DNA from: Actinomycetota bacterium
GTDB lineage: Bacteria > Actinomycetota > Acidimicrobiia > IMCC26256 > PALSA-610
NCBI GenBank assembly: GCA_034408875.1
Contig: JAWXCJ010000011.1
Span: 1 to 46,745 of the forward strand
Direction of reading: 5' to 3'
DNA: 46,745 nucleotides
The notes under the pieces were generated by a model. The model searched no databases. It was not told where the DNA came from and saw only the letters and a program-made list of their open reading frames with translations. Positions 2,532 to 37,621 of this stretch are shown here, piece after piece; the stretch's first letter is position 1, and every line of letters begins with the position of its first letter. A program made the translations under genes and the position numbers.

Positions 2532-2539
2532 GCCGCGCC

Positions 2540-2576: not shown

Positions 2577-2604
2577 TCCGGCCCGACCGGATCGGGGGGT
2601 GACG

Positions 2605-4833
2605 GTGGCAACCGACAGCGAGAACCAGAGCGGCGACGCCCCTCTCGGCGCTGCCGCGCTCGCCGCCGCCGTCCTCGACGAGGAAGAGGCCCGAGAAGCC
2701 GCGCAGGCAAAGTCCCGCGAGCAGGTGATCTTCCCCGACGACCTCCTCCCTGGCGTCCAGTCCGAGCCGCTGACTCTGAAGCAAGGATTCGCGGCCGGCG
2801 GCGCCTACATGTTCGTCGTCCTGACGATGTTGAACTCGCTCGACGAGCTCGAGGGCGCGGCGATGAGCGTGCTCGCGCCCGAGATCCGGGACACCTTTGG
2901 CATCAGCGAGGGCGCGATCACCTTCATCACAGGTGCGTCGCTCGCGTTCTTCGTACTCGGCGCGGTCCCGATGGGTTGGCTCGCCGATCGCGTCAAGCGC
3001 GCGCCGATCGTCGGCTTCTCAAGCCTGTTCTTCGGGTTCTTCGTCGTCCTGTCGGGCTTGGCGGTCAGCGCGTTCATGCTCTTCTGGACGCGGTTCTTCA
3101 CCGGTATCGCCAAGGCCAACACCATCCCGGTTCACGGTTCATTGATCGCCGACAACTATCCGATCGGCGTTCGCGCCCGCATGTCGGCCCTCAACAACCA
3201 GATCGGCCACGGCTTCGGATTGGCGAGTCCCGTCCTTGCCGGCGGTATCGCGGTTGCGGTCGGCGGTTCAGAGGGCTGGCGCTGGGCGTTCTTGTTGCTG
3301 GGACTCCCGGTCACGATCGTGGCCGTTGCGGCATTCTTCATTCGCGAACCGCCGCGCGGGCAGTACGAGAAGGACGACGTGCTCCACGAGGTGTTCACGG
3401 AGGAGAACCCCGCCCCCATCTCGATGGAAGCCGCCTTTGCCCGCATCAAGCGCATCCGCACGATTCGCAACGTCGTCACCGCCTTCTCTGCCCTCGGGTT
3501 CGCCCTGTTCACGATTCCGGTGCTCACCAGCCAGTACCTCGACGACACGCTCGGCGTCGACGATCCCCTCGACCGTGGCATCGTCCTCAGCCTCATCGGA
3601 GTCGCCGCGCTCCCGTTCTTCCCGTTTGTCGGGCGGTACTTCGACCGTACGTATCGGGTCGACCCGCCGAAGGCTCTGGTCATTATCGGCATGTGCATCC
3701 TGCCGTCGGCCCTGCTGACGCCGCTGCAGTTTTCGGTCGACAACGTCGCACTGTTCGTCATTCTCGCCACCCCGACCGCGGTCCTCTCGGCAATGGCGTT
3801 CTCGATGGTCGGTCCCGTACTTCAGGCGGTGGTGCCGTTCCGCCTGCGCGGTATGGGAACTGCGTACGCGACCTTGACGATCTTTCTCGTGGGCGGACTC
3901 CTCGGGAATTTGCTCGCGGCGTTCCTCGTCGATGCCACGAGCATTCGGACAACCGTGATCGTCATGGCAATACCGTCGAGCATCATCGGAGGGGTCCTCC
4001 TGATGAACGGCTCCCGCTTCATCCGCAACGACCTGTCCCTCGTCGTGGAAGAGCTGCTTGAAGAACAGGCCGAGCACCACAAGCGTCGCGAGTTGGGAGC
4101 CGCAACTCCCGCGTTGCAACTTGCAAACATCGACTTCTCGTACGGACCGGTGCAGGTGCTGTTCGGCGTGAACTTCGAGGTGCGCAAGGGCGAGACCCTC
4201 GCACTGCTCGGCACCAACGGTGCCGGTAAGTCGACCGTTCTGCGAGTCATCAGCGGCCTCGCTGTCCCCGAACGCGGGGTCGTACGTCTCAACGGACAGA
4301 ACATCACGTACGTCGCGCCCGAAACTCGGGCGCGCCGGCTCCGGATCATGCAGCTCCCCGGCGGCAAGGGAACCTTTCCGAGCCTCACGGTGCACCAGAA
4401 CCTCGCGATCAGTGCGCGCCTCGCGACGAAGTCGCACTCGGAGCAGGACGAACACGTCGGGCGTGTCCTCGACCTGTTCCCCGACCTCGCCGGAAAGCAG
4501 GGGCAGAACGCCGGCAGCCTCTCCGGCGGACAGCAACAGATGCTCGCGCTCGCCCGCGTCTTGATCCACGAGCCCGAGATCCTGCTCATCGACGAGCTGT
4601 CCCTCGGTCTTGCACCCGTTGTGGTCCAGCGCCTGTTGGAGTTGGTCGAGCAGCTCAAAGAAGCCGGCCAGACGATGATCATCGTCGAGCAGTCGTTGAA
4701 CGTCGCGCTCGCGATCGCCGACCGCGCCATCTTCCTCGAGAAGGGCGAAGTGCGTTTCGAAGGCGCCGCCGCCGACCTGCTCGAACGTGACGACCTGGCC
4801 CGGGCCGTGTTCTTCGGCGACGAGGGCGGTTGA
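2605..4833 (+). CDS. fusion protein: N-terminal MFS-type 12-TM domain plus C-terminal LivF-type ABC ATPase
   Basis: About twelve hydrophobic spans in a 6+6 arrangement, with an MFS motif-A-like loop GWLADRVKRAPIVG. The C-terminal ~240 aa carry Walker A GTNGAGKST, signature LSGGQQQ and Walker B ILLIDELSLGL. GTG at 2605 is preceded by GGGGGG. ORF 2503-4833 would overlap the OMT remnant. Confidence 0.8.
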   Translation: MATDSENQSGDAPLGAAALAAAVLDEEEAREAAQAKSREQVIFPDDLLPGVQSEPLTLKQGFAAGGAYMFVVLTMLNSLDELEGAAMSVLAPEIRDTFGISEGAITFITGASLAFFVLGAVPMGWLADRVKRAPIVGFSSLFFGFFVVLSGLAVSAFMLFWTRFFTGIAKANTIPVHGSLIADNYPIGVRARMSALNNQIGHGFGLASPVLAGGIAVAVGGSEGWRWAFLLLGLPVTIVAVAAFFIREPPRGQYEKDDVLHEVFTEENPAPISMEAAFARIKRIRTIRNVVTAFSALGFALFTIPVLTSQYLDDTLGVDDPLDRGIVLSLIGVAALPFFPFVGRYFDRTYRVDPPKALVIIGMCILPSALLTPLQFSVDNVALFVILATPTAVLSAMAFSMVGPVLQAVVPFRLRGMGTAYATLTIFLVGGLLGNLLAAFLVDATSIRTTVIVMAIPSSIIGGVLLMNGSRFIRNDLSLVVEELLEEQAEHHKRRELGAATPALQLANIDFSYGPVQVLFGVNFEVRKGETLALLGTNGAGKSTVLRVISGLAVPERGVVRLNGQNITYVAPETRARRLRIMQLPGGKGTFPSLTVHQNLAISARLATKSHSEQDEHVGRVLDLFPDLAGKQGQNAGSLSGGQQQMLALARVLIHEPEILLIDELSLGLAPVVVQRLLELVEQLKEAGQTMIIVEQSLNVALAIADRAIFLEKGEVRFEGAAADLLERDDLARAVFFGDEGG

Positions 4834-7676
4834 TGCTCGCAACGGTCGCCACCTGGGACATCGCGTTCACCGGCCTGGTCAACGGCCTTGCCGGCGCGCT
4901 CGTCGCCATGGGCATCGTGCTCGTGTACCGGTCGAGCCGCGTCATCAACTTCGCCGTGGGCAGCATGGGCGTTCCGGCGACCGCGCTCTTCGGTCTCATG
5001 GCCGCCAAGCAGGGCTGGCCCTACTGGCCGTCGTTGATCGCGGCGATGGCCGTCGGCATTCTCACCGGAACCGTCGTCGAACTGGTCGTCATCCGCCGCC
5101 TCGCTCGGGCGCCGCGGGTCATCGTGCTGGTCGCGACGATCGGCGTCGCGCAACTGTGTGTTGCCGTCACCCTCGCGCTGCCCAAGTACCGCACCGGCGA
5201 GTTCCAAACGAAGTTCCCGCTGCCGTTCGAGGGCCAATGGCAGCCCGGACTCGATGTCGGTGTGAAGGATTCGGAACTCGTGGTGCTGATGTTCGTCCCC
5301 GCGATCATCGTCGGGCTTTGGTGGCTGCTCGGGCACACGACGTTCGGTGAAGCCGTCCGCGCCTCGGCGAGCAACGCCGACCTCGCCCGCATGACGGGTA
5401 TCAGCCCGAAGCTCGTGTCGACCGCGGTGTGGTCGATCGCCGGGTTCCTGTCCTTCATGGCGATCTTCCTGACGGCCACGCTGAATGCATCGACCGCGCT
5501 GGTGGAGATCGGACCGCAAACATTGGTGCGCGGCATGGCCGCCGCGCTCGTCGGCGGCATGGTGTCGTTCCCGCGCGCGGCAATCGCGGCCATCGCGATC
5601 GGCGTCCTCGAGCGGATCTACTACTTCAACTTTCCCAGCGAGACGGGAATGGTCGAGTTCGTTCTTCTCGTCGTGATCATCGCGTTGGTCGCCCGCGTCA
5701 GCCGGGACGCGGAGGCCGGCGGCGAAAGCTTCCAGTTCGCTCCGCGCGTGAGCGCGATACCGGATGCGCTACGCCGGATGTGGTGGGTCGGACGTCTCCC
5801 GCATCTCATCGGGGTTCTCTTCGTCGTCCTCGCGGTCATTGCCCCGATGCTGTCGGACCGGTCCGAGAACCACGGCGCGTGGACGAAGATCATCGGGTTC
5901 GCTATCTGCGCACTGTCCGTCACGGTGTTGACCGGGTGGGCCGGCCAGCTCTCCCTCGGGCAGATGGCCTTCGCGGGAATGGGCGCGCTTTCGGCCGCGG
6001 CGCTCGCGCGCGGTGCTCCGACCGAGATCGGCTTCAGCTCGATCAGCGTGTTCGACGGGAACCTCCCGACCCTCTCGTTCCCGTGGACGATGTTGATCGG
6101 CGCCTGCTTCGCGGCCGGGCTGGCGGTGATCATCGGCATCGGTGCTCTGCGCGTGCGTGGGCTCCTGCTCGCGGTGAGCACGCTCGCGTTCGCTATTGCG
6201 TGCCAGGCGTACCTGTTCCGGCGGCCCATTTTCAGCCCGAACGGCAGCACGAGCGTGACCCTCCCCCGCGCCGAGATCGGGCCGTTCGACCTGACCGACA
6301 AGAATCGGGCCTTCTACTACGCCGCGCTCGCCACACTCGTGGTGGTCATGGCCGTGCTCGGCCACCTTCGGCAGTCGGGTATTGGGCGGACCATTGTCGG
6401 CGTGCGCGAGAACTACGACGCCGCGTCGGCAATGACGGTGTCGCCCACGCGATCGAAGCTCACCGCGTTCGCGCTCGCCGGCTTCGTCGCCGGCTTGGGG
6501 GGCAGCGTCATCGCGGCCGCGTACGACACGTCGTTCGACCACTCCGGCCGCTACTTCGTGGTGCAGGACTCGCTGACGATCGTCGCGATCGCGGTGATCG
6601 GCGGGCTCGGCAGCCTCTCGGGGGCCGTTGTCGGCGCACTGTGGGTCGTCGGGCTGCCGTCGTTCTTCCCCGGGAACGAGACAGTGCCGCTCTTCGTGTC
6701 GAGCATCGGGCTCCTGCTCATCTTGTTGTACATCCCCGGTGGGTTCGCCCAGATCGGGTACTTCGCGCGCGACGCGATCGTCCGAGCGGTCGCGCGACGC
6801 CGCCCGGAACAACCGGTGAAGTCCGTCTCGACGCCGCCGACCTCGCTCACCCGGGAGCGTACGGGCGTGCCGGTCGCAGTCGGCACTACCGGCGCCGTCC
6901 TCGCGACGCGTGAACTGACCGTTCGGTTCGGCGGCCTTGTCGCCGTCAACGGCATCGACGTGGAAGCGCAACCGGGTGAGGTCATCGGCCTCATCGGCAA
7001 CAACGGCGCGGGCAAGTCGACGCTGCTCAACGCAATTGGCGGCTACGTCAAAAGCAGCGGCCGGGTCGAGCTCCTCGGCCGCGACATCTCCAAGTTGCGT
7101 CCCCACCAGCGCGCTCGCATCGGCCTCGGGCGCACATTCCAGGCGGCCACGCTGTATCCGGAGCTGACCGTACGCGACACGGTGCTCGTCGCGATGGAAG
7201 CGCGCCACCGAACGTCGTTCTTCGGAACGCTCACCGTCTTCGCGCAGATCCGGCCCGAGCGCACCCGCCGGGCGGAAGCAGCCGAACTCATCGACTTCCT
7301 CGGCCTCGGCCGCTACGCCGATCGCCACGTCGCCGAACTCTCGACCGGCACCCGCCGCATCGTCGAGCTGGCGACCGTGCTCGCGGTCGCGCCTCGGGTG
7401 ATCTGTCTCGACGAACCCACAGCGGGTGTCGCCCAACGCGAGGCCGAAGCGTTCGGTCCACTGATCACCAGCATCCAGCGCGAACTCGATTCGACGCTGC
7501 TGATCGTCGAGCACGACCTGCCGATGATCATGTCGATCAGCGACCGCGTGTACTGCCTCGAAGCCGGACAGGTCATCGCGGAGGGTTCGCCCGAAGAGAT
7601 CCGGGCGAACCCTCGCGTGATTGCGTCCTACCTGGGCACCGACGAGCGGGCCATCATGCGCAGCGACGCTCGCTGA
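4833..7676 (+). CDS. fusion protein: LivH-like permease, LivM-like permease and LivG-like ABC ATPase (branched-chain amino acid/HAAT-family importer)
   Basis: N-terminal LivH-like region (GLVNGLAGALVAMGIVLVYRSSRVINFAVGS). Central LivM-like region (LTGWAGQLSLGQMAFAGMGA). C-terminal NBD (Walker A GNNGAGKST, LSTGTRR, VICLDEPTAGV). The ATG overlaps the upstream TGA (TGATG). Confidence 0.85.
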   Translation: MLATVATWDIAFTGLVNGLAGALVAMGIVLVYRSSRVINFAVGSMGVPATALFGLMAAKQGWPYWPSLIAAMAVGILTGTVVELVVIRRLARAPRVIVLVATIGVAQLCVAVTLALPKYRTGEFQTKFPLPFEGQWQPGLDVGVKDSELVVLMFVPAIIVGLWWLLGHTTFGEAVRASASNADLARMTGISPKLVSTAVWSIAGFLSFMAIFLTATLNASTALVEIGPQTLVRGMAAALVGGMVSFPRAAIAAIAIGVLERIYYFNFPSETGMVEFVLLVVIIALVARVSRDAEAGGESFQFAPRVSAIPDALRRMWWVGRLPHLIGVLFVVLAVIAPMLSDRSENHGAWTKIIGFAICALSVTVLTGWAGQLSLGQMAFAGMGALSAAALARGAPTEIGFSSISVFDGNLPTLSFPWTMLIGACFAAGLAVIIGIGALRVRGLLLAVSTLAFAIACQAYLFRRPIFSPNGSTSVTLPRAEIGPFDLTDKNRAFYYAALATLVVVMAVLGHLRQSGIGRTIVGVRENYDAASAMTVSPTRSKLTAFALAGFVAGLGGSVIAAAYDTSFDHSGRYFVVQDSLTIVAIAVIGGLGSLSGAVVGALWVVGLPSFFPGNETVPLFVSSIGLLLILLYIPGGFAQIGYFARDAIVRAVARRRPEQPVKSVSTPPTSLTRERTGVPVAVGTTGAVLATRELTVRFGGLVAVNGIDVEAQPGEVIGLIGNNGAGKSTLLNAIGGYVKSSGRVELLGRDISKLRPHQRARIGLGRTFQAATLYPELTVRDTVLVAMEARHRTSFFGTLTVFAQIRPERTRRAEAAELIDFLGLGRYADRHVAELSTGTRRIVELATVLAVAPRVICLDEPTAGVAQREAEAFGPLITSIQRELDSTLLIVEHDLPMIMSISDRVYCLEAGQVIAEGSPEEIRANPRVIASYLGTDERAIMRSDAR

Positions 7677-7688
7677 ACCGGCGAGCGA

Positions 7689-9074
7689 CTACCCGCCGGA
7701 ACACTTCCCGCCGCTGGCGTCGGCCAGTTCGGTCACGCCCTTCCAGTCGCCGTTCTCGCCGATCGTCGGGTCGAACTGCACGATGCGGTACATGTCGTTG
7801 GCTGCGTACTTGCCCTCGCACAACGAAGCGACGGTGGCCGTGGGCAACTCGATTGATCCGAGCCCGTGAATCGCCGTGGTCCAGCTCTCGTTGGTGACAC
7901 CCGCGCCGGCGGCCTCGAGCCCGAGTACGAGCATCTCGACCTCGTCGCAGAAGTCCTCGACGGCGACGAACTCTTCGACGTTCTTGCCGTTCTCGTTCGG
8001 GACGATGTCGTCGGGCCGAACGATCTCGTGGCCGATCGCTGCCTCCACCGCGTCGATGCAATTCTGCAGCTTGGCATTCGGCTCGGCCCACCGTTCCGAC
8101 CGGGTCTCGCCGTCGAGGCTGATGAGTCCTTCGTACGGATTCGGGTCGGCGCCCGACGCGACAGCGTCCTGCGCCGACGCTGAGAGGGAGGGCGAGTCGG
8201 CGATAAGGACCACGCCCGGCATTTCGAGCGCGATCTTGTCGGCGAACTGCTTCGCCGGCGCGGTGAGCCCGGCCGTGAAGATCGTGTCGACGCCCTCTTC
8301 CTTCCACCGGGCGATGAAGCCGTCGAGCTGCGACTGCGCGGCCGACGTGTCGGTCCCCGTGATCGTGAGTACCGCTGTCGAACCGAGATCAGCCTCGATC
8401 TCTTCGAGGCCCGGGACGATCACTTCGTCGATCCGGGTCTCCGACTTGTCGTCGCCCAGCACCGCGACCTTCTTACCCTCGAGCATGCCTTCCTCTCCGA
8501 GCAAACGGATGAGGTTGCCGGCAGTCGCTTCGGGGGTACCACCCGGCGTCAACAACAACGCCGGCGGAGCCTCGTCGATCCACGCGTCCTGCAACTCGTG
8601 GCCGATGTGGATCGTTTCCTTGTCGCGCGTGAGGCAGAGCTGCCCCTCGCCCGTGAAGTCGATGAACACACCGAGGACGGCGAATACTTCTTCGTCGTCG
8701 GCCATGCCGGTGCAGATCGCCTGCGGGCTCGGCTCGCTGCCGGGAATCGGCGGGTACTCGCGGAAGACAGCCTCCAGCGTGTACGGCACGCGCCCGTCGG
8801 CGTTGTAGTCGTCGATGACCGCCTGCGCGATCGCCTCCTGGTCGCCGCGCTCGAAGTCGACGAAGTCGGCAATGGCCGAGTAGTCGACGAGCACGACACC
8901 GATCTTCAGCGGCTCGGCGTCAGCAGACGCGTCGTCGTCGGCCTCGGTCGTATCCGTGGCCGGGTCGTCATCGTCGTCGTCACCACCACACGCGGCAAAC
9001 ACCAATGCCCCGACGCAAAGCGCTGCGAACAACGCACGACTCCGTGCCAACCCCGACAGTCCGGACCGACGCAT
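7689..9074 (-). CDS. ABC transporter substrate-binding lipoprotein (LivJ/Peripla_BP_6-like)
   Basis: Signal peptide plus lipobox MRRSGLSGLARSRALFAALCVGALVFAAC, then an acidic linker GGDDDDDDPATDTTEADDD and a type-I periplasmic binding fold-like body. I prefer the ATG at 9074 (AGGGGGG Shine-Dalgarno) over the GTG at 9092. It is convergent with the permease genes, 12 nt apart. Confidence 0.8.
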   Translation of the reverse strand: MRRSGLSGLARSRALFAALCVGALVFAACGGDDDDDDPATDTTEADDDASADAEPLKIGVVLVDYSAIADFVDFERGDQEAIAQAVIDDYNADGRVPYTLEAVFREYPPIPGSEPSPQAICTGMADDEEVFAVLGVFIDFTGEGQLCLTRDKETIHIGHELQDAWIDEAPPALLLTPGGTPEATAGNLIRLLGEEGMLEGKKVAVLGDDKSETRIDEVIVPGLEEIEADLGSTAVLTITGTDTSAAQSQLDGFIARWKEEGVDTIFTAGLTAPAKQFADKIALEMPGVVLIADSPSLSASAQDAVASGADPNPYEGLISLDGETRSERWAEPNAKLQNCIDAVEAAIGHEIVRPDDIVPNENGKNVEEFVAVEDFCDEVEMLVLGLEAAGAGVTNESWTTAIHGLGSIELPTATVASLCEGKYAANDMYRIVQFDPTIGENGDWKGVTELADASGGKCSGG

Positions 9075-9110
9075 TGCAACCCCCCTGGTCACCGATTGGC
9101 CAGGACTCTA

Positions 9111-9264: not shown

Positions 9265-10863
9265 TTACGCCAGCGCGACCAAGTCCATGAGGTCATCGGA
9301 CCAGTAGTCCAATGTTCCCTCGGGCATCAGCAGGACCCTGTCTGGCGCTAGTGCTTCTACGAACTCGACGTCGTGACTGACCAGGAGCATTGCGCCTTTC
9401 CACTCGCGCAGCGCCGTACCGACCGCGGTCCGCGAGGGCGGGTCGAGGTTGTTGGTCGGTTCGTCGAGGAGGAGGAGGTTGTGGCCACCGGCGACGAGCA
9501 TCGACAGCGAGAGCTTGGTTTTCTCACCGCCCGAGAGGGTGCTCGCGTCCTGGAAGGCGAGGTCGCCGCGCAGTCCGAACATGCCGAGCAGCCCGCGCAG
9601 GTACTGGTCGGTGAGCGTGCTCGGCGCGACGGTGCGGGCATGCGCCAGTGCCGACTCCCCGGCCGAGATGTTCTCGTGCTCCTGCGCGTAGTAGCCCATC
9701 GAGACGTTGTGCCCGAGGCGCACCTCGCCCAACTCGGGTTCGAGTTCACCGGTGAGTGAGCGCAGCAGCGTGGTCTTGCCGGCACCGTTGAGGCCGAGCA
9801 CAAGGAGCCGTTCGGTGCGACCGACGTCGAATGTGACATCTTCGAAGATGGTCTTGCGGCCGAACGCCTTGGCCAGGTCCTTCACTTCGAGCACGGTCTT
9901 GCCCGCGCGCGGCGGCACCGGGAGCGTGACCCGCATCGTCTTCTTGGCCTTGGGCGCGTCGATCTTCGTCGCCGCCATGCGGTCGACGCGCGCGTCGAGC
10001 ACCTTGGCGAGCCGGGCGCGCGACTGGGTTTGATGCCGCATGCCGTCGGCCAGCGTTTTCAGGCGCTTCATCTCCGACTCCTGGCGCGTCGCGATCTTCG
10101 TACGCGACTTCTCGTCGACTTCGCGGGCCGTGAGGTACTGCGAGTAGGTCCCCTTGTATTCGACGAGTTCACCCTCGTCGAGGTGCAGCACGCGGGTCAT
10201 GGCGTGGTCGAGCAACGCGAGGTCGTGGCTGATGACGAGGAGCGCGCCCTTGAAGGTGCGCAAGAAGTTCATCAGCCATTCCTTGGCATCGACGTCGAGG
10301 TGGTTTGTGGGTTCGTCGAGGAGAAGCACGTCGCTGGCGGCGAAGAGGATCCGCGCTAATTCGGCGCGGCGTCGCTCGCCACCTGAAAGCGCGCCGATCG
10401 GGAGGTCGAGCCGGTCGGGTGCAAGGCCGAGGCCGTCGACCATGCGGCGCACCTCGGCTTCGGCCGCGTACCCACCGGCGTCGCGGAACGCGTCCTCGGC
10501 GTTCGAGTACGCCCGTACGTTGCGGGCCGACGGGTCGGCGTCGACTTTGTGGCGGAGATCGTCGAGTTTGCCGGCCGCGGCGTCGAGGCCCCGGCCCGAA
10601 AGCACGTGAGCGAGCGCGGTGCCGTCGAGTCCCTTGCCGCGCGACGGCGGGTCCTGCGGCAGGTACCCGAGACCCTCGCGCGGCCGGGAGACGACACCAC
10701 TCGCGGCGTCGGCGTCGCCGGCAATCACCTTCAACAGCGAGGTCTTGCCCGCACCGTTGCGGCCGACGAGGCCGACCTTGTCACCGGCATGCAACGAGAA
10801 CGACGCGCCCGCGACGACGTACTTACCGCCGACCTCGACCGCGACTTCCCGGGCTTGGAGCAC
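9265..10863 (-). CDS. ABC-F family ATPase (two tandem NBDs, no TM domain)
   Basis: Two Walker A motifs (GRNGAGKTS, GLNGAGKTT) and two signatures (LSGGERRR, LSGGEKTK). A charged inter-domain linker (KSRTKIATRQESEMKRLKT..) is present and there are no hydrophobic spans. Confidence 0.9.
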   Translation of the reverse strand: MLQAREVAVEVGGKYVVAGASFSLHAGDKVGLVGRNGAGKTSLLKVIAGDADAASGVVSRPREGLGYLPQDPPSRGKGLDGTALAHVLSGRGLDAAAGKLDDLRHKVDADPSARNVRAYSNAEDAFRDAGGYAAEAEVRRMVDGLGLAPDRLDLPIGALSGGERRRAELARILFAASDVLLLDEPTNHLDVDAKEWLMNFLRTFKGALLVISHDLALLDHAMTRVLHLDEGELVEYKGTYSQYLTAREVDEKSRTKIATRQESEMKRLKTLADGMRHQTQSRARLAKVLDARVDRMAATKIDAPKAKKTMRVTLPVPPRAGKTVLEVKDLAKAFGRKTIFEDVTFDVGRTERLLVLGLNGAGKTTLLRSLTGELEPELGEVRLGHNVSMGYYAQEHENISAGESALAHARTVAPSTLTDQYLRGLLGMFGLRGDLAFQDASTLSGGEKTKLSLSMLVAGGHNLLLLDEPTNNLDPPSRTAVGTALREWKGAMLLVSHDVEFVEALAPDRVLLMPEGTLDYWSDDLMDLVALA

Positions 10864-10883: not shown

Positions 10884-11900
10884 CTACCCGCCCTGGTCCG
10901 CGGACTTGTAGCCGGGGGCGCCGGCCTCGACCCATTCGCCGACGAAGTCGAAGAATTCCTGGCCGAAGGGGTCTCCGCCCCGCAGGGGCAGGGTGCCCCG
11001 GCGGATGGTGAAGTCGTACGGGGCAAGTTTCGCGGCCTCGGCGAAATGCACCTCGGCCCGGTCGTCGCGCCCGACCCGGTGCAAATACGCGCCGAGGCGG
11101 CGTTCGGCGCGCGCCAGCTGTTGCTCGGGGGTCGTGACGATCAGCCGGGCCTGCGCCTCCTCGGCCGAGTACGGCAGCACCCCGTCGCGCACCCAGGCGC
11201 GGAGCTGCTCGTGGTGCACGGCGGAATCGATCTGGGTGAAGTCCTTGAACATGTCGTTCACGGGCGCGTTGACGGGCGCGCGCACGACGCGGTCTTCCTC
11301 GTCGATCCAGATGACCGTCGGCACGTTGTAGATACCGAGCTGGTCGGCCGTCAGGTGGCCCGGGTCGACGAGCGCGGGATACGTGGGCGATGCGGCCTCG
11401 ATCCATTCGCGCGCGGCCGGCGCCTCGTCGAGCGCGACGGCGACGACGGTGAATCCGTACTCAGCGAGTTCGTCGTGGAGTTCCTGCCACCCGGGCAGGT
11501 CGTAGCGGCAGCCTCACCACGAAGCCCAGGCGAAGAACAGTTTCTTCTTACGCCCGATCGACGACCACGTGAAAGCTGTGCCGTCGACGTCGTGCAGGGT
11601 GAAGTCGCCGACCTCCATGCCGGTCTGCTGCTCGGCTCGTTTCGTAGCAGGCGTTCCGAGGACCGCGACCTGCGCATCGTCGTCGACCGCGAACGGAGTG
11701 CGCAGTGCCGCGGCCGCGGCGCGCAGGTCGACACCACCCTCGACGGCGACGTTCCCGTCCCGCACGGGCACACACACGGCGCCGCGGCAGAGCCCTTCGG
11801 GCTTCAGCTCCCATCCGGTGGCGCGAGTGAGGGCGTCGGGCGCGACGACGAGTCCGGTGATCTCGACCTCGCCGTCGTTGGCGATCAGGGTCCAGGTCAT
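10884..11900 (-). CDS. TlpA/ResA-like thioredoxin-fold redoxin with an in-frame TGA at the active site (probable selenocysteine; motif WASW-U-GC)
   Basis: ORFs 10884-11324 and 11514-11900 share one frame (1017 nt = 339 codons). The only stop between them is TGA (plus-strand tca, 11514-11516). The connecting 11325-11513 is open and reads as redoxin sequence. The TGA replaces the first Cys of the WCxxC-type active site. The ATG overlaps the amidase stop (ATGA). Confidence 0.7.
11483..11499 (-). other. candidate bacterial SECIS apical hairpin (CCUGCC-CGGGU-GGCAGG), with its 5-nt loop beginning 21 nt 3' of the UGA
   Basis: Read on the minus strand: UGA GGCUGCCGCUACGA CCUGCC CGGGU GGCAGG. 6-bp GC-rich stem and a 5-nt loop containing GGU. 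The distance falls in the range reported for bacterial SECIS elements. Not validated with a covariance model. Confidence 0.4.
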
Positions 11901-13285
11901 CGGGGGGCTCCGGGTGCAACAAGCGGCCAGGGACGTTCGCGTTCGGCGGCGAGGGCCATATCGAGCAGCCAGCCTTCGCGGTGATGCGGGGCGAGCACCT
12001 GCAGCCCGACGGGTAGACCGCGCACGGTGCCGACCGGTATCGACAGCGCGGGGCTGCCGTAGATGTTCGCGGGAATGGTCAGCGCGCCGTTGTTGCCGGG
12101 GCTGACCTCGACGCCGTTGACGACGTTCGGGAGCGGCCCCTCCGCGCCGAACGCGACGTCGGGGTTCGTCGACGCGATGACGAAATCGACCTGGTCGAAA
12201 AGGTCGGCCATCGCTTCGTTGGTGCGCACGCGCGTGGCCTCGATCTTCGCCCGCACATCGATGTTGTACATCTTCTCGGCGATGCGCAGGCCGAAGCGAA
12301 TCTCACGCGTGAGGTCGCCCATGCAGTCGGGCCAGAGGTCACCCAAGTCCTTGCGCACTTCGGCGAGACCGGCGAGGGCCCACTCCAAACTCAACTCGGG
12401 CAACTTCACCGGCACGTCGACGAGTTCGAGTCCCCAGGTACGCGCGAGGTCTTCGGCGGCGGCAACGACAGCGGCCGCGACGTCGTCGGCGACGGCCGCG
12501 ACGCCGAGGTCGACGGCGATGACGGCGCGTTTGCCCCGGAGGTCGTACGAACCGAGGCCGGATTCCCAGCCTTCGACGCGCGGAAGGCTGTAGGGGTCGC
12601 GCGAGTCGAATCCGTTGCACACGTCGAGATAGCGCGCCATGTCGCGGACCGAGCGCGAGAGGCATCCGCTCACTGCGGTCAGGGACCCGATGACGAGATC
12701 GGGTCCCTTCGGGATCCGTCCGTAGGTGTTCTTCAGACCGGGAAGGCCGGTGAACGCAGCCGGGATACGAATCGATCCACCGCCGTCACCGCCGGTCGCG
12801 AGCGGGACGAGCCCGCCCGCCACCGCTGACGCGGCACCGCCCGAGGAACCACCGGGTGTGTGGTCGTGGTTCCAGGGATTGAGCGTCGCGCCGTTCAACT
12901 TCGTGAACGTCAGGTTCACACCACCGAACTCGCTCGCAGTCGTGAGACCGACAAGCACGGAGCCCGCGTCTCGCAACCGTTGCACCATCGTGGAGTCGTG
13001 CGTTGCGACGCGGTCGCGCAGTACGACTGACGCCTCGGTCAGCGGCCATCCCGACACGGGCGACAACTCCTTCACGCCGACGGGCACGCCGCCGAACGGC
13101 AACGACACGTCTGCGCGTTCGGCCTCGGCGCGCGCCTCGTCGGGCGCGAGATACGAGAACGCGTTCAGTTCCGAAGCGTCGATCGCCGCGAGTGTCGCGT
13201 CGAGTTCCTCGAGCGGGCTGCGTTCGCCCGCGCGAAACGCGTCGACCAAGCTGCACGCATCTCCCAGCCAGGGCTCACTCGTCAT
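11897..13285 (-). CDS. amidase (amidase-signature family)
   Basis: Signature GGSSGGAASAVAGGLVPLATGGDGGGSIRIPAAF. 462 aa. Its start overlaps the AftD-like stop by 11 nt. Confidence 0.9.
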   Translation of the reverse strand: MTSEPWLGDACSLVDAFRAGERSPLEELDATLAAIDASELNAFSYLAPDEARAEAERADVSLPFGGVPVGVKELSPVSGWPLTEASVVLRDRVATHDSTMVQRLRDAGSVLVGLTTASEFGGVNLTFTKLNGATLNPWNHDHTPGGSSGGAASAVAGGLVPLATGGDGGGSIRIPAAFTGLPGLKNTYGRIPKGPDLVIGSLTAVSGCLSRSVRDMARYLDVCNGFDSRDPYSLPRVEGWESGLGSYDLRGKRAVIAVDLGVAAVADDVAAAVVAAAEDLARTWGLELVDVPVKLPELSLEWALAGLAEVRKDLGDLWPDCMGDLTREIRFGLRIAEKMYNIDVRAKIEATRVRTNEAMADLFDQVDFVIASTNPDVAFGAEGPLPNVVNGVEVSPGNNGALTIPANIYGSPALSIPVGTVRGLPVGLQVLAPHHREGWLLDMALAAERERPWPLVAPGAPR

Positions 13286-16200
13286 GGGGTCGCCACCTGT
13301 CGTCGTCGTTCGCTTCGGGCCGGCTCGGACGAAGTGTACGGAACGTTTCGATCACGGCGTCGGCCCCGAGCAGGGCGAGCGCAAGCCAGCCGAGGGTCCG
13401 GGCCCACGGGAACAACACCGGCCACTCGAAGATCGGGTCGAATTCGTACCGCCGTTGGCCGTACACGATGTACAGCGCGGCGATCCCCAGCAGGAGCGGG
13501 GGCGCGAGCGCCAGCACCACCCGCGCGCGCGGGCGGAGCACGGCGAGCGCGGTGAGCGCGGCCGCGACGACACCGATCCACGGCGCCGCGACCAGCGCCG
13601 CGACCCCGCCTGCCACCACCACGGTCGCGACCCGCGCCCACGTCGGCAGCGGTATCCCGTCGGCGCCGGGCAGCCCGAGCTCGACGTCGGCATCACCTGG
13701 CATGGCAGTCACCACCGTTCGAGCCCGGCGCCAGGTCAGCGCGATCAGAACGCAGCACAGGATCGCGACGCCGAGCGAAATCCACAGTGATGCCCAAACC
13801 CTACGTTGCGGCGTCCAGTCGAGGACGATGTCGAACGAAGTCGCGGTCGGTGTCACATACCAGCCGTTCGCGTATCCGTCGACGAGTTGTGGCGGGCCGA
13901 GGTCGTCGCCCCCCGGCACTCGGGCCGTCCACCCCTCGCTGTGCGACTGCCCGAGTACGAGCCAGAACGGCTCGGTGGCCGCTTCGACTTTGACCGAAAT
14001 GCGCGTACGCCCGTTGTCGGCCACGTGCACGACCGGGGTCGGCGGCGCGCTGGCGGCCCCCGACGTGACGCGACCGTCCTCGGCCGTGAACACCTGATCT
14101 CCGCCATCAGCGGCGAAGACGAGTCGGTCGAGCTCGACGCCCGTGTCGACACCGGACGCGGCCCGGACCACGTGCCGTCCCGGCCCCAGGGTGATCTCTT
14201 CCCGGCACGGTTCGACCGTCAATCGCTCCATGGCCGCCGCCGCGGCCCCCGTGCCGACGATGCGAACCGGAACCGGACGGCCGTCGATGCGCAGCAGATC
14301 GGCGCGACACTCCTCCGAGAGCAGCCGCGGCGGCGCGTCGAGCGTCAATTCGGCGATACCCAGTTCGGCGATGCCCGCCGGTAGTAGGGAGGTGCTGGCG
14401 CCGTCGAGTGTGAATGTGAGCTGTTCGCGTACGTCGACGATCGTGACGCGCACACGGCGACCGGTCATCGGTGCGACGTCGATCGGGATCGCGACCGTCG
14501 AATTCTCGCCCGCCTGGTCCTCGATCGTCGGGAGCACGACGTCGCGAACTTCGTCATCGACTTCGACGCGAAGGCGAGTCGGTACCGAGTGCCTGCCGTC
14601 GGCGATCACCTGGAGATCGAGATGGTCCACGGTCAGCGGGTCCGGCGCAATGAATTCGGCCCACTGACCGCGCACGCCGATGAACGGAGTCTGCCAGGCC
14701 GTCGCCGCGTCACCGTCGATCGCGGCGTCGGCGCGGCAGGCGACGCAGCCCTTCAGGAACTCACGGGCGTCGGTCGAGATCCCGCCCGCTTCCGGCGTCG
14801 GATATCCGAGCGCGCGGTCGATCGCGGCGTGGTCGGCCGCACTCGTGACCCGGGCGTCTCCCGTCACCGTGAACGTGCGCGCCGTAGGGAGCTCGAACTC
14901 GCGCACGATCGCCACTTCCGGGTCGGTGCGCGGTGGGATCGGGACGACCCGCTCCCGATTCATCACGACCACCAACGGATGGTCGACCGAGTCGGCACCG
15001 GTCGCGCCGAGCAGGTCCGTCGGCATCCGCACGACTTCTTCGACGCGCACCGTCCGGTTGCTCACGTCGTCGCGCACGCGCACTTCGGCAAAGCCCACCG
15101 CGTCGGCGCCACCGTGCCAGCGTCGCTTTCCCACATTGACGGCGGACACCTCGATGTCGAGGGTGCGAAACCGGCGTTGGTCGAAACGCAGGCGCTGGCC
15201 TTCGGCGGTGCGGGACGAACCGTCGAGTGTGAATGTCTCGGCCGGACCGCCGTCGAAGCTGACCTGTACCTCGGTGATGAACCGATCGCGTCCACCGGTA
15301 AGCGGTTGTACGACCTCCACTGCGTTCGTCGTGATCGGTTCGTCGAGCACGACGTGCAGGCGTTGCCCGATCGCGGCACCGAAGCCGCCGGCGCGCCAGG
15401 CGGTGGCGGCGTCGCCGTCGAAGGCACGCGCGGCGCGGTCTTCGGACGTGTACGAGATCACGTTGCCGTAAGCGGTCGCGGCGACCCACCGGACACCCTG
15501 CTGGTCGACGACGGTCTGTGCGCTCGGTCGTTCGTCGGGAAACACGTCGAGGCGGGCGTCACCGAGATCGCGGCGCAGTGCTTCCTCGCCCGGTTGTTCG
15601 GTGACGCCGACGTTGTCGAGCACCGAACTCCATTTGCGCGCTCGACGGCGGTTCGAGTCGGTCACGACGAGCAACATGTCGTCGGCAATCGCGTCGCGGA
15701 GCTTCTCGTCGTCGCCGAACGACGCCGAATACTGCACGACGCCGGCGTCATCGAGGAGACCGAGATCGGCGACGTCGACGAGCCCTTCGCCGTCACCGGC
15801 GATCATGACCGCGCGCTCGTCGGACTCGGCCCGCACGATCGGCGCGGGGTCCTCCACCGCGTACACGACCACCGGGCTCGACAACGGCTCGTTCACCGGA
15901 GCCCGCAACGTCAACTCGTCTTCGTGCGGCTTCGCCAACGCCGGTGCGGTCGGTGCGCCGAATGCGCGCGGCGAACCGAGGCCGGGCATTTCAGCGAACG
16001 CCCGCGCCAGTTCACGGTTCGTGATCACGTCGTAGCGTTCGAACTGGATGTCGTTGCGGAGGACCACGGCGCCGACGCCCATGCGCCGAGCGATCGCAGT
16101 GAACCCGCGCTCGTCGAACAGTCCCTCCTGGAGCCGGCGGTCGACCGCGTTGAGGAGATCGGCGGTTCCCGGCCCGCCGTACGGAATGAGCTCGCGCGCG

Positions 16201-17717
16201 ACGTACGGCCGTTCGGTCAGGCCCGGCGTAATCGGGTCGACCGTGTTGCCCCACCGGTAGGACGCAAAGTCGAGCCCCGGAACCTCGAACACGCGCGTGC
16301 CGTCGTCGGTCGCGTCGAGGTAGTCGGCCGCGTCGAGCCAGTACTCAGGAACGTCTTCCGGACGTTGGAGGTTCTTGCCGTAGAAGGTGTCGTCGACCAG
16401 CGCGGGGAAGTTCACGAAGACCAGCGCGACGACGATGCCGACGCTGCTCACCGCGAGGAATGGCCTCGCTCGCCGCCGCAACGCGTCATAGGCCGCGTTC
16501 ACGCCGAGGCCGAGGAACATCGCGGTAGCCAGCACAACAAGGGGTACCGCCCGCCCCGTACTGCGAAGTGCAAGCCCCGCCGTCGACGAGTTCGCGAACG
16601 CCTTGAACACGGCGCCGAGTGGGCTCGGGTCGTCGTACGGGTGTGCGCCAACCGAGATCACGACGCCGACGAGCAAGAGGCCGACGAAGAACACTCGGTG
16701 GCGCCAGCGCACCACCCCCGCCGCCAAGAGCGACAAACACGCGAGTGCATAGCCCGCCAGCAGCACGACCGGTCGCTGCGTGTAGTTGGACGATGCTTCG
16801 ATCCACGGACCGAGCCGGTCCTGCCCGTAGAAGAACCAGTACCCGAGGCCGCGCAGGATCTCGTTCGGTGTCGACGTGAGCGCGACCGCTTCGACCGTCT
16901 CGGTGTACTTCAGCACGTTGAGGCCGTAGCCGCTCTGGATCGACAGGCCCGCGATCCACCACAACGACGTGAAGATCGTCAGCAGCCCGGTCTTGGCCGC
17001 GACCGACAGCGCACGCCGCCACTGCACTTCGCGCGCCACCAACCAGGAGTACGCAATCCACAACACGGGACCGACGCCGGCGAAGATGAGCGCGGTCGCG
17101 TTCACGCCGCCCACGACCTGTACGACAAGGGCGAAGATCGCCGGGTAGCGCCAGCCGCCGTCGCGCAGCGCCTTGCGCATCAACGCGATCATCCACGGCA
17201 GGGCCGCCCACGGCAGCAACAACACCGAGATGCGCGCCGCGTAGTCGAGCGAGTACGGCGTGAGCATGTACGCGAGTGCACCGACAACGACACCGGGCCC
17301 GCGAATGCCGAACGTGCGGAACAGGTAGAGCACGCCCGCGGCTGCGACGAAAAGGATGGAGCCGAGCCAGAGGCGCTGCGCGACCCAGTCGGGAACACCG
17401 AACCGGTCGAACGACCAGTAGAACGGGCCCATCGGGAACAGGTAACCGATCGTCTGGTGGGTGACGGTGCCCATACCGACGTTCGGGTCCCACATGTACG
17501 CGGCCCGGCCCATGAGCCGCGCCGGATCGAGGTAGAGGTATTGCTTCGTGTCCGCCGCGACGAAGCCGGGCGCGGTGCGAAGTGCGGGAACGTACGCGAG
17601 GAGCGCGAGCGCGAGCCATCCGATCGGCTTACGAGGGAGCGTCTGGCCGATCTCGACGGCCCGCGTCACGAAACCGGGGCGCGTTCGAGGGCGCGCGTCC
17701 CCCGAGATCGCAGTCAC
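13275..17717 (-). CDS. AftD-like alpha-(1->3)-arabinofuranosyltransferase family (DUF3367) giant GT-C membrane glycosyltransferase with discoidin/CBM-like repeats
   Basis: N-terminal polytopic region ..FVAADTKQYLYLDPARLMGRAAYMWDPNVGMGTVTHQTIGYLFPMGPFYW.. matches my memory of the AftD family. Two repeats are built around DGDAATAW. C-terminal TM bundle. GTG at 17717 overlaps the GT4 stop (GTGA). The Arg-rich ORF extension to 18029 is rejected. Confidence 0.8.
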   Translation of the reverse strand: MTAISGDARPRTRPGFVTRAVEIGQTLPRKPIGWLALALLAYVPALRTAPGFVAADTKQYLYLDPARLMGRAAYMWDPNVGMGTVTHQTIGYLFPMGPFYWSFDRFGVPDWVAQRLWLGSILFVAAAGVLYLFRTFGIRGPGVVVGALAYMLTPYSLDYAARISVLLLPWAALPWMIALMRKALRDGGWRYPAIFALVVQVVGGVNATALIFAGVGPVLWIAYSWLVAREVQWRRALSVAAKTGLLTIFTSLWWIAGLSIQSGYGLNVLKYTETVEAVALTSTPNEILRGLGYWFFYGQDRLGPWIEASSNYTQRPVVLLAGYALACLSLLAAGVVRWRHRVFFVGLLLVGVVISVGAHPYDDPSPLGAVFKAFANSSTAGLALRSTGRAVPLVVLATAMFLGLGVNAAYDALRRRARPFLAVSSVGIVVALVFVNFPALVDDTFYGKNLQRPEDVPEYWLDAADYLDATDDGTRVFEVPGLDFASYRWGNTVDPITPGLTERPYVARELIPYGGPGTADLLNAVDRRLQEGLFDERGFTAIARRMGVGAVVLRNDIQFERYDVITNRELARAFAEMPGLGSPRAFGAPTAPALAKPHEDELTLRAPVNEPLSSPVVVYAVEDPAPIVRAESDERAVMIAGDGEGLVDVADLGLLDDAGVVQYSASFGDDEKLRDAIADDMLLVVTDSNRRRARKWSSVLDNVGVTEQPGEEALRRDLGDARLDVFPDERPSAQTVVDQQGVRWVAATAYGNVISYTSEDRAARAFDGDAATAWRAGGFGAAIGQRLHVVLDEPITTNAVEVVQPLTGGRDRFITEVQVSFDGGPAETFTLDGSSRTAEGQRLRFDQRRFRTLDIEVSAVNVGKRRWHGGADAVGFAEVRVRDDVSNRTVRVEEVVRMPTDLLGATGADSVDHPLVVVMNRERVVPIPPRTDPEVAIVREFELPTARTFTVTGDARVTSAADHAAIDRALGYPTPEAGGISTDAREFLKGCVACRADAAIDGDAATAWQTPFIGVRGQWAEFIAPDPLTVDHLDLQVIADGRHSVPTRLRVEVDDEVRDVVLPTIEDQAGENSTVAIPIDVAPMTGRRVRVTIVDVREQLTFTLDGASTSLLPAGIAELGIAELTLDAPPRLLSEECRADLLRIDGRPVPVRIVGTGAAAAAMERLTVEPCREEITLGPGRHVVRAASGVDTGVELDRLVFAADGGDQVFTAEDGRVTSGAASAPPTPVVHVADNGRTRISVKVEAATEPFWLVLGQSHSEGWTARVPGGDDLGPPQLVDGYANGWYVTPTATSFDIVLDWTPQRRVWASLWISLGVAILCCVLIALTWRRARTVVTAMPGDADVELGLPGADGIPLPTWARVATVVVAGGVAALVAAPWIGVVAAALTALAVLRPRARVVLALAPPLLLGIAALYIVYGQRRYEFDPIFEWPVLFPWARTLGWLALALLGADAVIETFRTLRPSRPEANDDDRWRPHDE

Positions 17718-18880
17718 ACCGTGCGTTGGCGAATCGCCTCGACGGCAAGCACCTCGAGCGTGCCGCGCGCGGTCGCAGCCCAGGTGAAGGTCGCCGCGTG
17801 CGCCTGCGCGGCGGCACCGAGGCGGGCCCGCAGGTCTCCGTCTTCGATGACGCGCCCGAGCGCCCCCGCGAGTTCTGCAGGGCGGTCGACGAGGAGTCCG
17901 GTCGTGCCGTCGACCACGGCGTCCTCGTGGCCCGCGATGCGCGTGGCGACGGCCGGGGTACCGCACGCACCGGCTTCGGTGACCGTCATGCCCCAGCCTT
18001 CGTGCGCAGACGCGCTGGCGAGCACCCACGCCCGCCGGTACAGCGCGACGAGTTCGCCGTCGGAGAGCCTGCCGGGCAACGCGATCCAGTCTTCGGCGCC
18101 GAGTTCACGGCGGCGCGCTTCGAGTTCGCCGCGCGAGTAGCCCTCGCCGACGAGCATCGCGGTGAGTTCGGGGATGCGCGGCTTGAGTTCGGCGAGCGCG
18201 TCCATCAGCAGATGCATCTGCTTCACGGGCACCAACCGGCCCACTGCGACCACCAACGGCGTCGGCGACTTCGTACCGCCCGGCGCAAACCGGGTGTCGA
18301 CTCCCGGCGGGACCACACTCACGCGCGCGGCCTTGAACTTCAGGCGCTCGACAAGCTCTCGCTTCGACGACTCCGACAAGGTCACGATCGGCGTGCGGCG
18401 ATACAGCGGCGGGGCGACACGGAACTCGACGGCGCGTCCCAGCCGGGCAAGGCGGGGCGGCAACGTCATGTCCCACATCGTGTCGTGCACGTGGTGCAGC
18501 CACGCGACTGTTGGGCGGCGCGCCCACACCGGCGAGAAGAACGGCATGCCGTTCCAGATCTCGACCAGTCCGTCGCTCGCGCCGTGCCAGCCCATCATCT
18601 CGCTGAACGCGGCGCGGGGGAACACGAGGTACCGGCCCGCCTTGCGGATCACGCGGTACCCGTCGCGCCAGCTCACCTGCGGATGGCCCGGTGCGTATGA
18701 CGTGCGCATCGTGACTTCGATGCCCGCCTCGCCCCAGAGCGCCGCGACTTTCGATGCGTGCAGTTCCGAACCGCCGGCCTCCGGATCGTCGAGATCGCGC
18801 CACGCCAGGATCGCGATCCGGCGCAGCCCCGCGTTCGCAGCGATATCACCCAACTTGGCGACGGCCTCGGCTCCGGACAC
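17714..18880 (-). CDS. glycosyltransferase family 4 (GT-B, retaining type)
   Basis: C-terminal EX7E region EGWGMTVTEAGACGTPAVATRIAGHEDAVVDGTTGLLV. N-terminal IAILAWRDLDDPEAGGSELH. Confidence 0.9.
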   Translation of the reverse strand: MSGAEAVAKLGDIAANAGLRRIAILAWRDLDDPEAGGSELHASKVAALWGEAGIEVTMRTSYAPGHPQVSWRDGYRVIRKAGRYLVFPRAAFSEMMGWHGASDGLVEIWNGMPFFSPVWARRPTVAWLHHVHDTMWDMTLPPRLARLGRAVEFRVAPPLYRRTPIVTLSESSKRELVERLKFKAARVSVVPPGVDTRFAPGGTKSPTPLVVAVGRLVPVKQMHLLMDALAELKPRIPELTAMLVGEGYSRGELEARRRELGAEDWIALPGRLSDGELVALYRRAWVLASASAHEGWGMTVTEAGACGTPAVATRIAGHEDAVVDGTTGLLVDRPAELAGALGRVIEDGDLRARLGAAAQAHAATFTWAATARGTLEVLAVEAIRQRTV

Positions 18881-19856: not shown

Positions 19857-20588
19857 ATGCGCGTGTGGGTCACGGTTCCGACCTACGAAGAGGCCGAGAA
19901 CATCGAAGTGTTGGTGCGCCGCATCCGCGACGCGCTCCCCGACGCCGCGATCCTCGTCGTCGACGACAACAGTCCCGACGGCACCGCCGACAAGGCCGAA
20001 GCTCTCGGCGCCGATTTGGGCAACGTCCACGTGTTACGCCGGCCGCGCAAGCTCGGACTCGGCAGCGCGTACCGCGCCGGCCACGCCGCGGGCATCGCGC
20101 GCGGCTACGACGTGATGATCCAGATCGACGCCGACCTCTCGCACGATCCGGCCGACCTCCCCCGACTGCTCGCAGCGGTCGAGCGCGGCGCCGACCTCGC
20201 GATTGGTTCGCGTTACGTCGAGGGCGGCAGCGCGCCACACTGGCCGAAGCGCCGGCTGATGCTGTCGCGCTACGGCAACATCTATTCGTCGTTCGTGCTG
20301 CGCATGACGGTGAAGGACATCACCGCGGGGTACCGCGCGTACCGCGCCACGATCCTGGCGGAGATCCACTTCGAGACGACGCAGTCCACCGGTTACGGCT
20401 TCCAGGTCGAGATGGCGTACCGAGTGGTGCAAGCGGGCGGGAGCATCGAAGAGGTGCCGATCTGCTTCACCGACCGCGTACGCGGCACGTCGAAGATGTC
20501 GTCTCGCATCGTCGCCGAGGCGATGGCCCTGGTGACGTGGTGGGGCATCCGCGACGGCGTGAAGCGCATCGGTAGAAAGCGCGACTGA
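19857..20588 (+). CDS. polyprenol-monophosphomannose synthase-like GT2 (Ppm1/DPM1-like)
   Basis: VTVPTYEEAENI, VVDDNSPDGT, QIDADLSHDP and GSRY. The size (243 aa) and soluble character fit the catalytic Ppm1 type. Confidence 0.85.
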   Translation: MRVWVTVPTYEEAENIEVLVRRIRDALPDAAILVVDDNSPDGTADKAEALGADLGNVHVLRRPRKLGLGSAYRAGHAAGIARGYDVMIQIDADLSHDPADLPRLLAAVERGADLAIGSRYVEGGSAPHWPKRRLMLSRYGNIYSSFVLRMTVKDITAGYRAYRATILAEIHFETTQSTGYGFQVEMAYRVVQAGGSIEEVPICFTDRVRGTSKMSSRIVAEAMALVTWWGIRDGVKRIGRKRD

Positions 20589-37611: not shown

Positions 37612-37621
37612 GGTTATGGGC

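Follow-up and report, generated by a model that had tools for sequence, protein, structure and literature searches.

The stretch of DNA analysed here, referred to as the window, comprises positions 1 to 46,745 of contig JAWXCJ010000011.1 (GenBank assembly GCA_034408875.1) from an uncultured actinobacterium, and the subject of this report is a candidate selenoprotein gene located on its minus strand at positions 10884 to 11900. In the list of open reading frames (ORFs) for the window, this region is entered as two ORFs, 10884-11324 and 11514-11900, both on the minus strand. An earlier note on this DNA had claimed that these share one frame with a TGA as the sole stop between them, and translation of the region bears this out: 10884-11900 is a single frame of 339 codons (338 residues plus a TAG stop codon) containing only one internal stop, the TGA at 11514-11516 (tca on the plus strand). 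Likewise, the 63 codons connecting this TGA with the GTG at 11324 translate exactly as had been stated. On the minus strand, the TGA is embedded in the context ...GRKKKLFFAWASW-TGA-GCRYDLPGWQEL... (in short form KKKLFFAWASW*GCRYDLPGWQEL), and the motif W-A-S-W-TGA-G-C can be read directly from positions 11508-11528. If decoded as selenocysteine (Sec), the in-frame UGA would yield residue U129 at the position of the attacking Cys in a W-A-S-W-U-G-C motif. The codon of Cys131 (11508-11510, minus strand), which is invariant in all Sec and Cys forms of the protein, presumably provides the resolving Cys of this U-G-C centre. Over its full length, the coding sequence is homologous to proteins of 340-360 aa carrying Cys at the position of the TGA (Cys forms) as well as to other genes carrying TGA at this position (TGA forms).

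Four metagenome assemblies of this organism that are independent of each other (L004-L007; JGI 3300020186 and 3300020213, SRR6448210 and SRR6448213) show the identical TGA, one of them with an F-to-V change five codons upstream of it. Hence, the stop codon is not an assembly error. In all four assemblies, public gene calls split the gene into pieces of 128 and 146 aa, while only 199-aa tail fragments are called in relatives, in agreement with the expectation that automated callers would mis-annotate such a gene. Reassignment of TGA to an amino acid (genetic code 4 or 25) was considered and ruled out, since 18 of the 25 genes mapped in the window, the overlapping amidase gene among them, end with TGA. 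A scan of the window for further coding pairs joined by TGA returned the redoxin pair as the only one with a two-sided coding signature, all others being antisense artefacts.

For a homologue search, the read-through product with U replaced by C was used as query. This gave 897 homologues, of which the best 120 were examined; these are mostly single proteins of 335-360 aa with 47-63% identity. At the TGA column, all 118 full-length homologues spanning the site carry Cys, with W-[AS]-S-W-C-G-C-R as common motif. Of all hits, P0081 and P0089 match best (73-74% identity). Both are tails of 199 aa that start just past the TGA position, and their contigs (L001/L002 and L003) feature TGA at the identical codon with the N-terminal part open upstream. 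Overall, the three closest lineages (L001/L002, L003 and L105), sharing 62-68% amino-acid identity, all carry TGA at the same codon. Scanning one genome per species with the DNA motif TGGGCNTCNTGGTGAGGNTGYCG yielded matches in at least 120 genomes. The matches listed are all from metagenome-assembled genomes (MAGs), with no cultured isolate among them, and are distributed over Chloroflexota, Acidobacteriota, Actinomycetota, Alpha-, Beta-, Gamma- and Deltaproteobacteria, Rokubacteria, Methylomirabilota and others. With the exception of L047, which was rejected as a chance motif match, all of them are homologues whose frames are open both before and after the TGA. Among 75 usable genes of a metagenome set, which had been collected by means of the Cys-form alignment, 51 have TGA and the other 24 have Cys. 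In total, at least 170 TGA-G-C genes besides that of the window are thus at hand from many phyla (122 genome-derived and 51 metagenome-derived TGA forms), and the alignment of homologues proposed in the earlier note gives a Cys-or-TGA column. One MAG (Actinomycetes MFD05942.bin.2.133) contains two TGA-form redoxin paralogues, L105 (5512) and L127, which share 62% and 35% identity with the window protein, respectively.

Both sides of the TGA were shown to be under purifying selection by sequence comparison with the closest TGA forms (L003, L001 and L105). The ratio of nonsynonymous to synonymous substitution rates (dN/dS) amounts to 0.24-0.29 over 209 gap-free codons 3' of the TGA and to 0.30-0.57 in the 5' part, i.e. 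constraint on the 3' part is no weaker than on the 5' part. A neighbour-joining tree built from 148 Sec forms and 141 Cys forms, which is rough, based on motif-biased sampling and hence indicative only, requires at least 16 switches between Sec and Cys. In this tree, the window gene falls into a clade of ten leaves (six Sec, four Cys) inside a mainly Cys-containing actinobacterial clade (123 Cys, 17 Sec).

Directly downstream of the UGA, the messenger can fold into a hairpin resembling a bacterial selenocysteine insertion sequence (SECIS). This element of sequence CCUGCC-CGGGU-GGCAGG, located at 11483-11499 on the minus strand, consists of a 6-bp stem (11494-11499 with 11483-11488) and a 5-nt loop CGGGU (11489-11493), and lies within the codons for D-L-P-G-W-Q-E. 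It starts 14 nt past the UGA, and its loop begins with the 21st nt past the UGA. The same hairpin, with the same loop distance, had been proposed in the earlier note and was recovered independently by comparative analysis. For the 122 TGA forms, the 60 nt from the UGA onward were placed in a gapless alignment, in which RNAalifold predicts de novo just one stem of 6 bp, formed by columns 18-23 and 29-34 and enclosing a 5-nt loop. Of the cells in the TGA forms, 97.2% are paired, compared to 27-66% if the partners are slid by one to three columns. Moreover, 47 double-change cells are observed versus 9.7 +/- 2.6 in shuffled alignments, with none of 500 shuffles reaching the observed value. Three stem pairs exhibit compensatory changes. 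The outermost one occurs as C-G (66), U-A (26) or G-C (8), the silent third base of the Asp codon pairing with the first base of the codon following Gln, while the second pair from outside alternates between CUG/CAG and UUG/CAA. In the nearest relatives of the window, CUG/CAG is changed to CUU/AAG through a silent Leu change combined with a Gln-to-Lys replacement. The loop is of the general form N-G-[U/G]-N-U (N-G-K-N-U), the G at loop position 2 being invariant in TGA forms, and the loop codon encodes Val or Gly in all TGA forms, whereas the majority of Cys forms (84 of 118) have Ala there.

As a control for specificity, TGA and Cys forms were compared with respect to the stem itself. The inner five base pairs are intact in 117 of 122 genome-derived and 51 of 51 metagenome-derived TGA forms (96-100%), but only in 3 of 24 Cys forms (12%). 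Even if the comparison is restricted to genes for the peptide L-[PS]-x-W-Q, Leu is encoded by NTG in 110 of 112 TGA forms versus three of nine Cys forms. Therefore, the hairpin tracks the TGA and not the peptide, and both its covariation and its specificity for TGA forms are shown by these sequence comparisons. According to the literature, bacterial SECIS elements are characterised by a conserved G in a small apical loop that closely follows the UGA (PMC1088965); the element described here offers a 6-bp stem, a 5-nt N-G-K-N-U loop with an invariant G, covariation and TGA specificity. It resembles the E. coli fdhF-type SECIS in forming a hairpin within the coding sequence directly 3' of the UGA, as well as in its apical loop, which is small, starts 21 nt past the UGA and contains a conserved G with U or G as next base. 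In contrast to the fdhF-type element, it is minimal, its 6 bp being accompanied by no detected conserved lower stem or bulge, and it resides wholly inside the conserved peptide L-P-[VG]-W-Q. SelB may bind to this hairpin.

Regarding the encoded protein, a thioredoxin-fold domain of the ResA/TlpA/AhpC-TSA-like type covers approximately residues 95-215 (11256-11618, minus strand), as indicated by Pfam, by the ResA structure 4nmu and by Foldseek. The Pfam families AhpC-TSA and Redoxin match over residues 93-212 with E = 6e-16 (PF00578 with 58.9 bits at a cut-off of 26, PF08534 with 59 bits). The best solved relatives are redoxins of the ResA, TlpA and DsbE type (ResA 4nmu, E = 1.2e-10), and homology to ResA-type redoxins continues straight across the TGA. 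In the HMMER alignment to 4nmu, the TGA codon falls on the first active-site Cys of the WCxxC motif, with a one-residue gap inside the motif which results in U-G-C instead of C-x-x-C, and the cis-Pro segment VPT is conserved. Together with the Cys found in all 118 homologues, this supports the earlier placement of the TGA at the nucleophilic first Cys of a ResA/TlpA active site. The assignment as ResA/TlpA-type redoxin thus holds for the position of the first Cys, while it has to be refined in two respects, as the active site is shorter (U-G-C, CxC type) and a membrane anchor is lacking: the protein contains no hydrophobic segment that could serve as anchor or signal peptide, the maximal Kyte-Doolittle mean over 19 residues being 1.02. 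Hence, the window protein is most likely cytoplasmic, judged from its sequence, unlike ResA and TlpA.

An AlphaFold2 model was made of P0001, a Cys form with 60% identity, rather than of the window protein itself (pLDDT 95, pTM 0.92). It begins with beta strands at residue 2 and is composed of three domains packed together: the N-terminal one, of about 100 residues, is rich in beta structure, the second is the thioredoxin fold, and the C-terminal one is helical. In a Foldseek search with this model, only the thioredoxin domain was matched, with TM-scores of about 0.76 to the target and about 0.33 to the query. The N-terminal domain harbours a second Cys pair, Cys38-x4-Cys43 (11772-11789, minus strand), within the motif GWxLKPEGLCRGxVCVP, which is invariant in 65 aligned homologues and also occurs in TGA forms of other phyla. 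Compared with ResA, TlpA and CcmG (DsbE), the window protein has in common the thioredoxin fold, the Trp in front of the nucleophile and the cis-Pro segment VPT. It differs from them in its active site, which is one residue shorter (U-G-C for C-x-x-C), in having neither signal peptide nor membrane anchor whereas these proteins are extracytoplasmic, and in two additional domains for which no solved structure gives a match. Its scores also stay below the curated cut-offs for ResA (NF002854, 49.3 vs 170 bits), TlpA (NF047696, 35.2 vs 230 bits) and DsbE (TIGR00385, 21.6 vs 123 bits).

The top family match is the NCBIfam equivalog NF041054 (WAxxUGC_long), 'ResA-like WAxxUGC motif-containing protein', with E = 2e-69. 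A curated family with such a motif had been mentioned in the earlier note, and NF041054 is that family. The match covers profile positions 5-205 of 354, the C-terminal third being diverged. Common to both are the literal W-A-x-x-U-G-C motif, the same N-terminal and thioredoxin domains and a similar length (338 aa versus a 354-position profile), and members of NF041054 possess the same SECIS hairpin at the same distance from the UGA. The 'long' architecture of the family, an N-terminal domain followed by the thioredoxin fold and a C-terminal extension, is found in the window protein as well (338 aa versus about 350). Core members above the cut-off of 300 bits are L035 of the Binataceae (354.6 bits) and L053 of the Acidobacteriota (317.1 bits), to which BLASTP homology extends over residues 7-311 and 24-331, respectively. 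In contrast, the entire actinobacterial subclade remains below the cut-off, TGA and Cys forms alike (220-269 bits), as exemplified by the closest TGA relative L105 (229.3 bits), L072 (269.2 bits) and the Cys forms (220-238 bits). Based on these sequence comparisons, the window gene is treated as part of a divergent actinobacterial subclade of the same wider family.

In the literature, this type of protein has been present since 2008 as 'Prx-like (UGC-containing)' and later as 'UGC-containing Prx-like protein' (PMC9312934). Selenoproteins of this 'UGC-containing Prx-like / TlpA-family' type are listed in three studies (PMC2398784, PMC9312934, PMC13188914). The published family is commoner in non-marine samples. 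These papers give neither function, nor domain architecture, nor a SECIS consensus. The published family resembles the window gene in its pfam00578 / cd02966-type domain, the U-G-C motif, the many Cys homologues and a predicted bacterial SECIS. With regard to the published definition, the window protein features an AhpC-TSA domain and a Sec-Gly-Cys motif with Cys homologues aligned at Sec. Hence, a comparison of domain and motif suggests that the window gene belongs to this family, of which MBL6689828.1 and MDE0950781.1 are examples. A search of the literature for the motif name 'WAxxUGC' found no paper.

On the basis of these sequence data, we consider it highly likely that 10884-11900 on the minus strand is one gene which encodes a cytoplasmic three-domain thioredoxin-fold oxidoreductase of 338 residues, with the UGA at codon 129 decoded as Sec. 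The interpretation as a single 338-aa selenoprotein put forward in the earlier note is thereby supported by the Cys/TGA column, by selection and by the TGA-specific hairpin. Actual insertion of Sec in the source organism would proceed as follows: the hairpin 14 nt past the UGA would act as bacterial SECIS and be bound by the SelB-GTP-Sec-tRNA(Sec) complex, which would compete with release factor 2 for the UGA and bring Sec to it. The resulting product would carry a U129-G-C131 centre where ResA/TlpA redoxins have CxxC. The selenolate of U129 could then serve as attacking nucleophile on an oxidised substrate (disulfide, sulfenate or peroxide), and Cys131 could resolve the intermediate with formation of an intramolecular selenenylsulfide, which would subsequently be recycled by a reductant. 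The catalytic cycle as well as the substrate class put forward here are accordingly to be taken as a proposal.

Several observations weigh against decoding of the UGA as Sec. Within the window and 1.24 Mb of flanking sequence, no tRNA-Sec, selA, selB, selD or second selenoprotein gene was found: ARAGORN detected no tRNA-Sec in the window and all loci, and tblastn with E. coli SelA, SelB and SelD gave no match in the window and the flanks. The source organism is known from metagenome contigs of at most 46.7 kb, and this search covered the window plus the flanks that were fetched. The occurrence of two TGA-form paralogues in one related MAG (L105 and L127) argues for working Sec decoding in that lineage. 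Additionally, Sec machinery has been reported in about 40% of 244 Mycobacterium genomes (PMC13449736); Actinomycetota can thus decode Sec, which says nothing on the organism of the window. Further points on the negative side concern the hairpin. Single-sequence folding energies of the region are unexceptional (z = -0.7 to -1.6), and the minimum-energy fold of the window's own sequence makes use of an alternative 5' arm, a second CUGCC in the Gly-Cys-Arg codons (GGC UGC CGC, 11503-11513, minus strand) which pairs with the same 3' arm. This alternative arm was rejected as functional fold due to lacking conservation, as no more than 49 of the 122 TGA forms use GGC for this Gly. As single-sequence folding is not significant, the case for the hairpin rests on comparative evidence. 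Rfam searches likewise returned no relevant match, neither for the whole window at gathering threshold nor for 11380-11600 at E <= 10. With U replaced by C, the NF041054 score of 234.6 bits falls short of the curated cut-off of 300 bits, and the gene is therefore not filed under the equivalog in the strict sense. Finally, no experimental or functional study of any family member was found in the literature.

Three other explanations have to be weighed against these data. The gene could be a pseudogene: a Cys-type redoxin would have been cut short by a TGC-to-TGA nonsense mutation, and the part behind it would be in decay. Such a mutation requires one base change only, most close actinobacterial homologues are indeed Cys forms (123 of 140 leaves of the enclosing clade), and no Sec machinery is seen in the window. 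A decaying remnant, however, is hard to reconcile with a TGA common to lineages which are just 62-68% identical and to more than 170 genes of many phyla, with 209 downstream codons free of gaps and stops at a dN/dS of 0.24-0.29, and with a covarying hairpin that goes along with TGA and is lost in Cys forms. We therefore regard a nonsense mutation, which the earlier note had already placed second to a selenoprotein, as excluded for practical purposes, given that many lineages have kept the TGA, the SECIS-like hairpin and the coding sequence that follows. Equally improbable in our judgement is that the TGA is a true stop which gives rise to two polypeptides, a 128-aa N-terminal protein and a re-initiated 146-aa protein starting from the GTG at 11324. 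This corresponds to the automated annotation in four assemblies, but neither fragment would possess a complete thioredoxin fold, and the 63 codons between the TGA and the first start, which encode the resolving Cys and helix alpha-1, are conserved. Two separate proteins would also leave no role for the hairpin and the codon bias, and all Cys forms are single proteins of 340-360 aa.

Somewhat less remote, while still very improbable, is read-through of the UGA with insertion of a residue other than Sec (near-cognate Trp or Cys, or Cys via the Sec pathway), in which case the hairpin would be a generic stimulator of read-through or pausing. The inserted residue is not identifiable from sequence, and neither selenium nor Sec machinery is evidenced for the organism. 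Against this stands the location of the UGA in a redox-active Cys column, exchange of Sec and Cys being the rule in bacterial selenoproteins (PMC1794560), as well as the spacing of the hairpin and its small G-containing loop, both as in bacterial SECIS elements. Moreover, TGA is a normal stop codon in the source organism, and the family is curated as a selenoprotein family. With Sec decoding as the preferred reading, the locus very probably represents, as far as sequence can tell, a real selenoprotein gene that has been misannotated and whose SECIS-like element can be demonstrated.

With respect to genomic context, the start codon of the selenoprotein gene overlaps the stop codon of the upstream amidase gene in an ATGA at 11897-11900 (minus strand), with a GGAG 7 nt upstream (11908-11911), which suggests translational coupling of both genes. 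The amidase (462 aa, 11897-13285, minus strand; PF01425, 1.3e-78) is a probable operon member and occurs in the same order in L024 and L132. Its start is overlapped by 11 nt by the gene of an AftD-like GT-C-type arabinofuranosyltransferase (1584 aa, 13275-18029, minus strand; PF11847, 1.5e-110), whose synteny with the selenoprotein gene is kept in L001, L002, L024 and L105. Further upstream, a GT4 glycosyltransferase is encoded at 17714-18880. Hence, the ATGA overlap with an amidase inside a glycosyltransferase operon had been described correctly. On the other side, the gene of an ABC-F ATPase (9265-10863, minus strand; two ABC_tran and one ABC_tran_Xtn domains in Pfam) follows 21 nt downstream of the selenoprotein stop codon, and such a gene is also found nearby in L001, L003, L024 and L164. 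As a whole, positions 13275-40269 form a large envelope-glycan locus of this uncultured actinobacterium. Besides the AftD-like enzyme and the GT4, it includes two GT2s (19857-20588 and 27085-27807), four PMT_2-type GT-Cs (20627-21553, 22049-23419, 36211-37764 and 38743-40269), a DUF2142 protein (27882-29231) and an Acyl_transf_3 protein (31639-33375). The GT2s, PMT_2-type GT-Cs, DUF2142 protein and acyltransferase are encoded on the opposite strand and further along from the selenoprotein cluster.

The gene order GT4-AftD-(amidase)-selenoprotein recurs only in the closest relatives L001/L002, L024, L105 and L132. Clustering of conserved neighbours over 120 genomes gave no widespread partner, the largest cluster comprising seven loci, and Cys-form orthologues on megabase contigs are located among beta-oxidation-type genes. 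As the context is limited to the subclade of the window, the operon description is right for this lineage, while it does not identify the function of the family. In several Actinomycetota, a membrane protein of about 250 aa with a PF06181 (Urate_ox_N) domain is encoded directly after the redoxin, in case of both Cys and TGA forms (L208, 10148-10915; L209, 10124-10876; also L028, L082, L101 and L133). It is absent from the window and may be a partner of the redoxin. Elsewhere in the window, a 776-aa fusion of MFS_1 and ABC ATPase (2503-4833, plus strand) overlaps with a 948-aa fusion of a branched-chain-type permease (BPD_transp_2) and ABC ATPase (4830-7676, plus strand), and this pair of fused transporters is also present on L004. 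The adjacent ORF at 7689-9092 (467 aa, minus strand) displays a good coding signature with a GC content at third codon positions of 0.86, but gives no Pfam match at 1e-5; the gene at the matching position on L004 and L005 shows a faint Peripla_BP_6 match only.

Since the protein family has already been described, the present result is an annotation correction rather than a discovery. New in comparison to the published surveys are the minimal SECIS consensus, i.e. a 6-bp stem with an N-G-K-N-U loop within the L-P-[V/G]-W-Q codons, the clean evidence for decay of the hairpin upon replacement of Sec by Cys, and the three-domain cytoplasmic architecture with its second invariant Cys pair. In public gene calls, the window gene and its relatives are split or truncated, and NF041054 misses the whole actinobacterial subclade; with scores below 300 bits, the NCBI pipeline probably would not name or rescue the gene by means of this model. 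It is conceivable, though in our estimate unlikely, that the actinobacterial subclade constitutes a functionally distinct selenoenzyme which was recruited to envelope arabinan/glycan biosynthesis, being co-transcribed with the GT4, the AftD-like GT-C and the amidase and coupled to the latter. If this were true, selenium status would be linked to envelope assembly in uncultured Actinomycetota. The U-G-C redoxin family abounds in bacteria of soil and groundwater. Given the split gene calls and the miss by NF041054, selenoproteome counts for uncultured Actinomycetota are underestimated.

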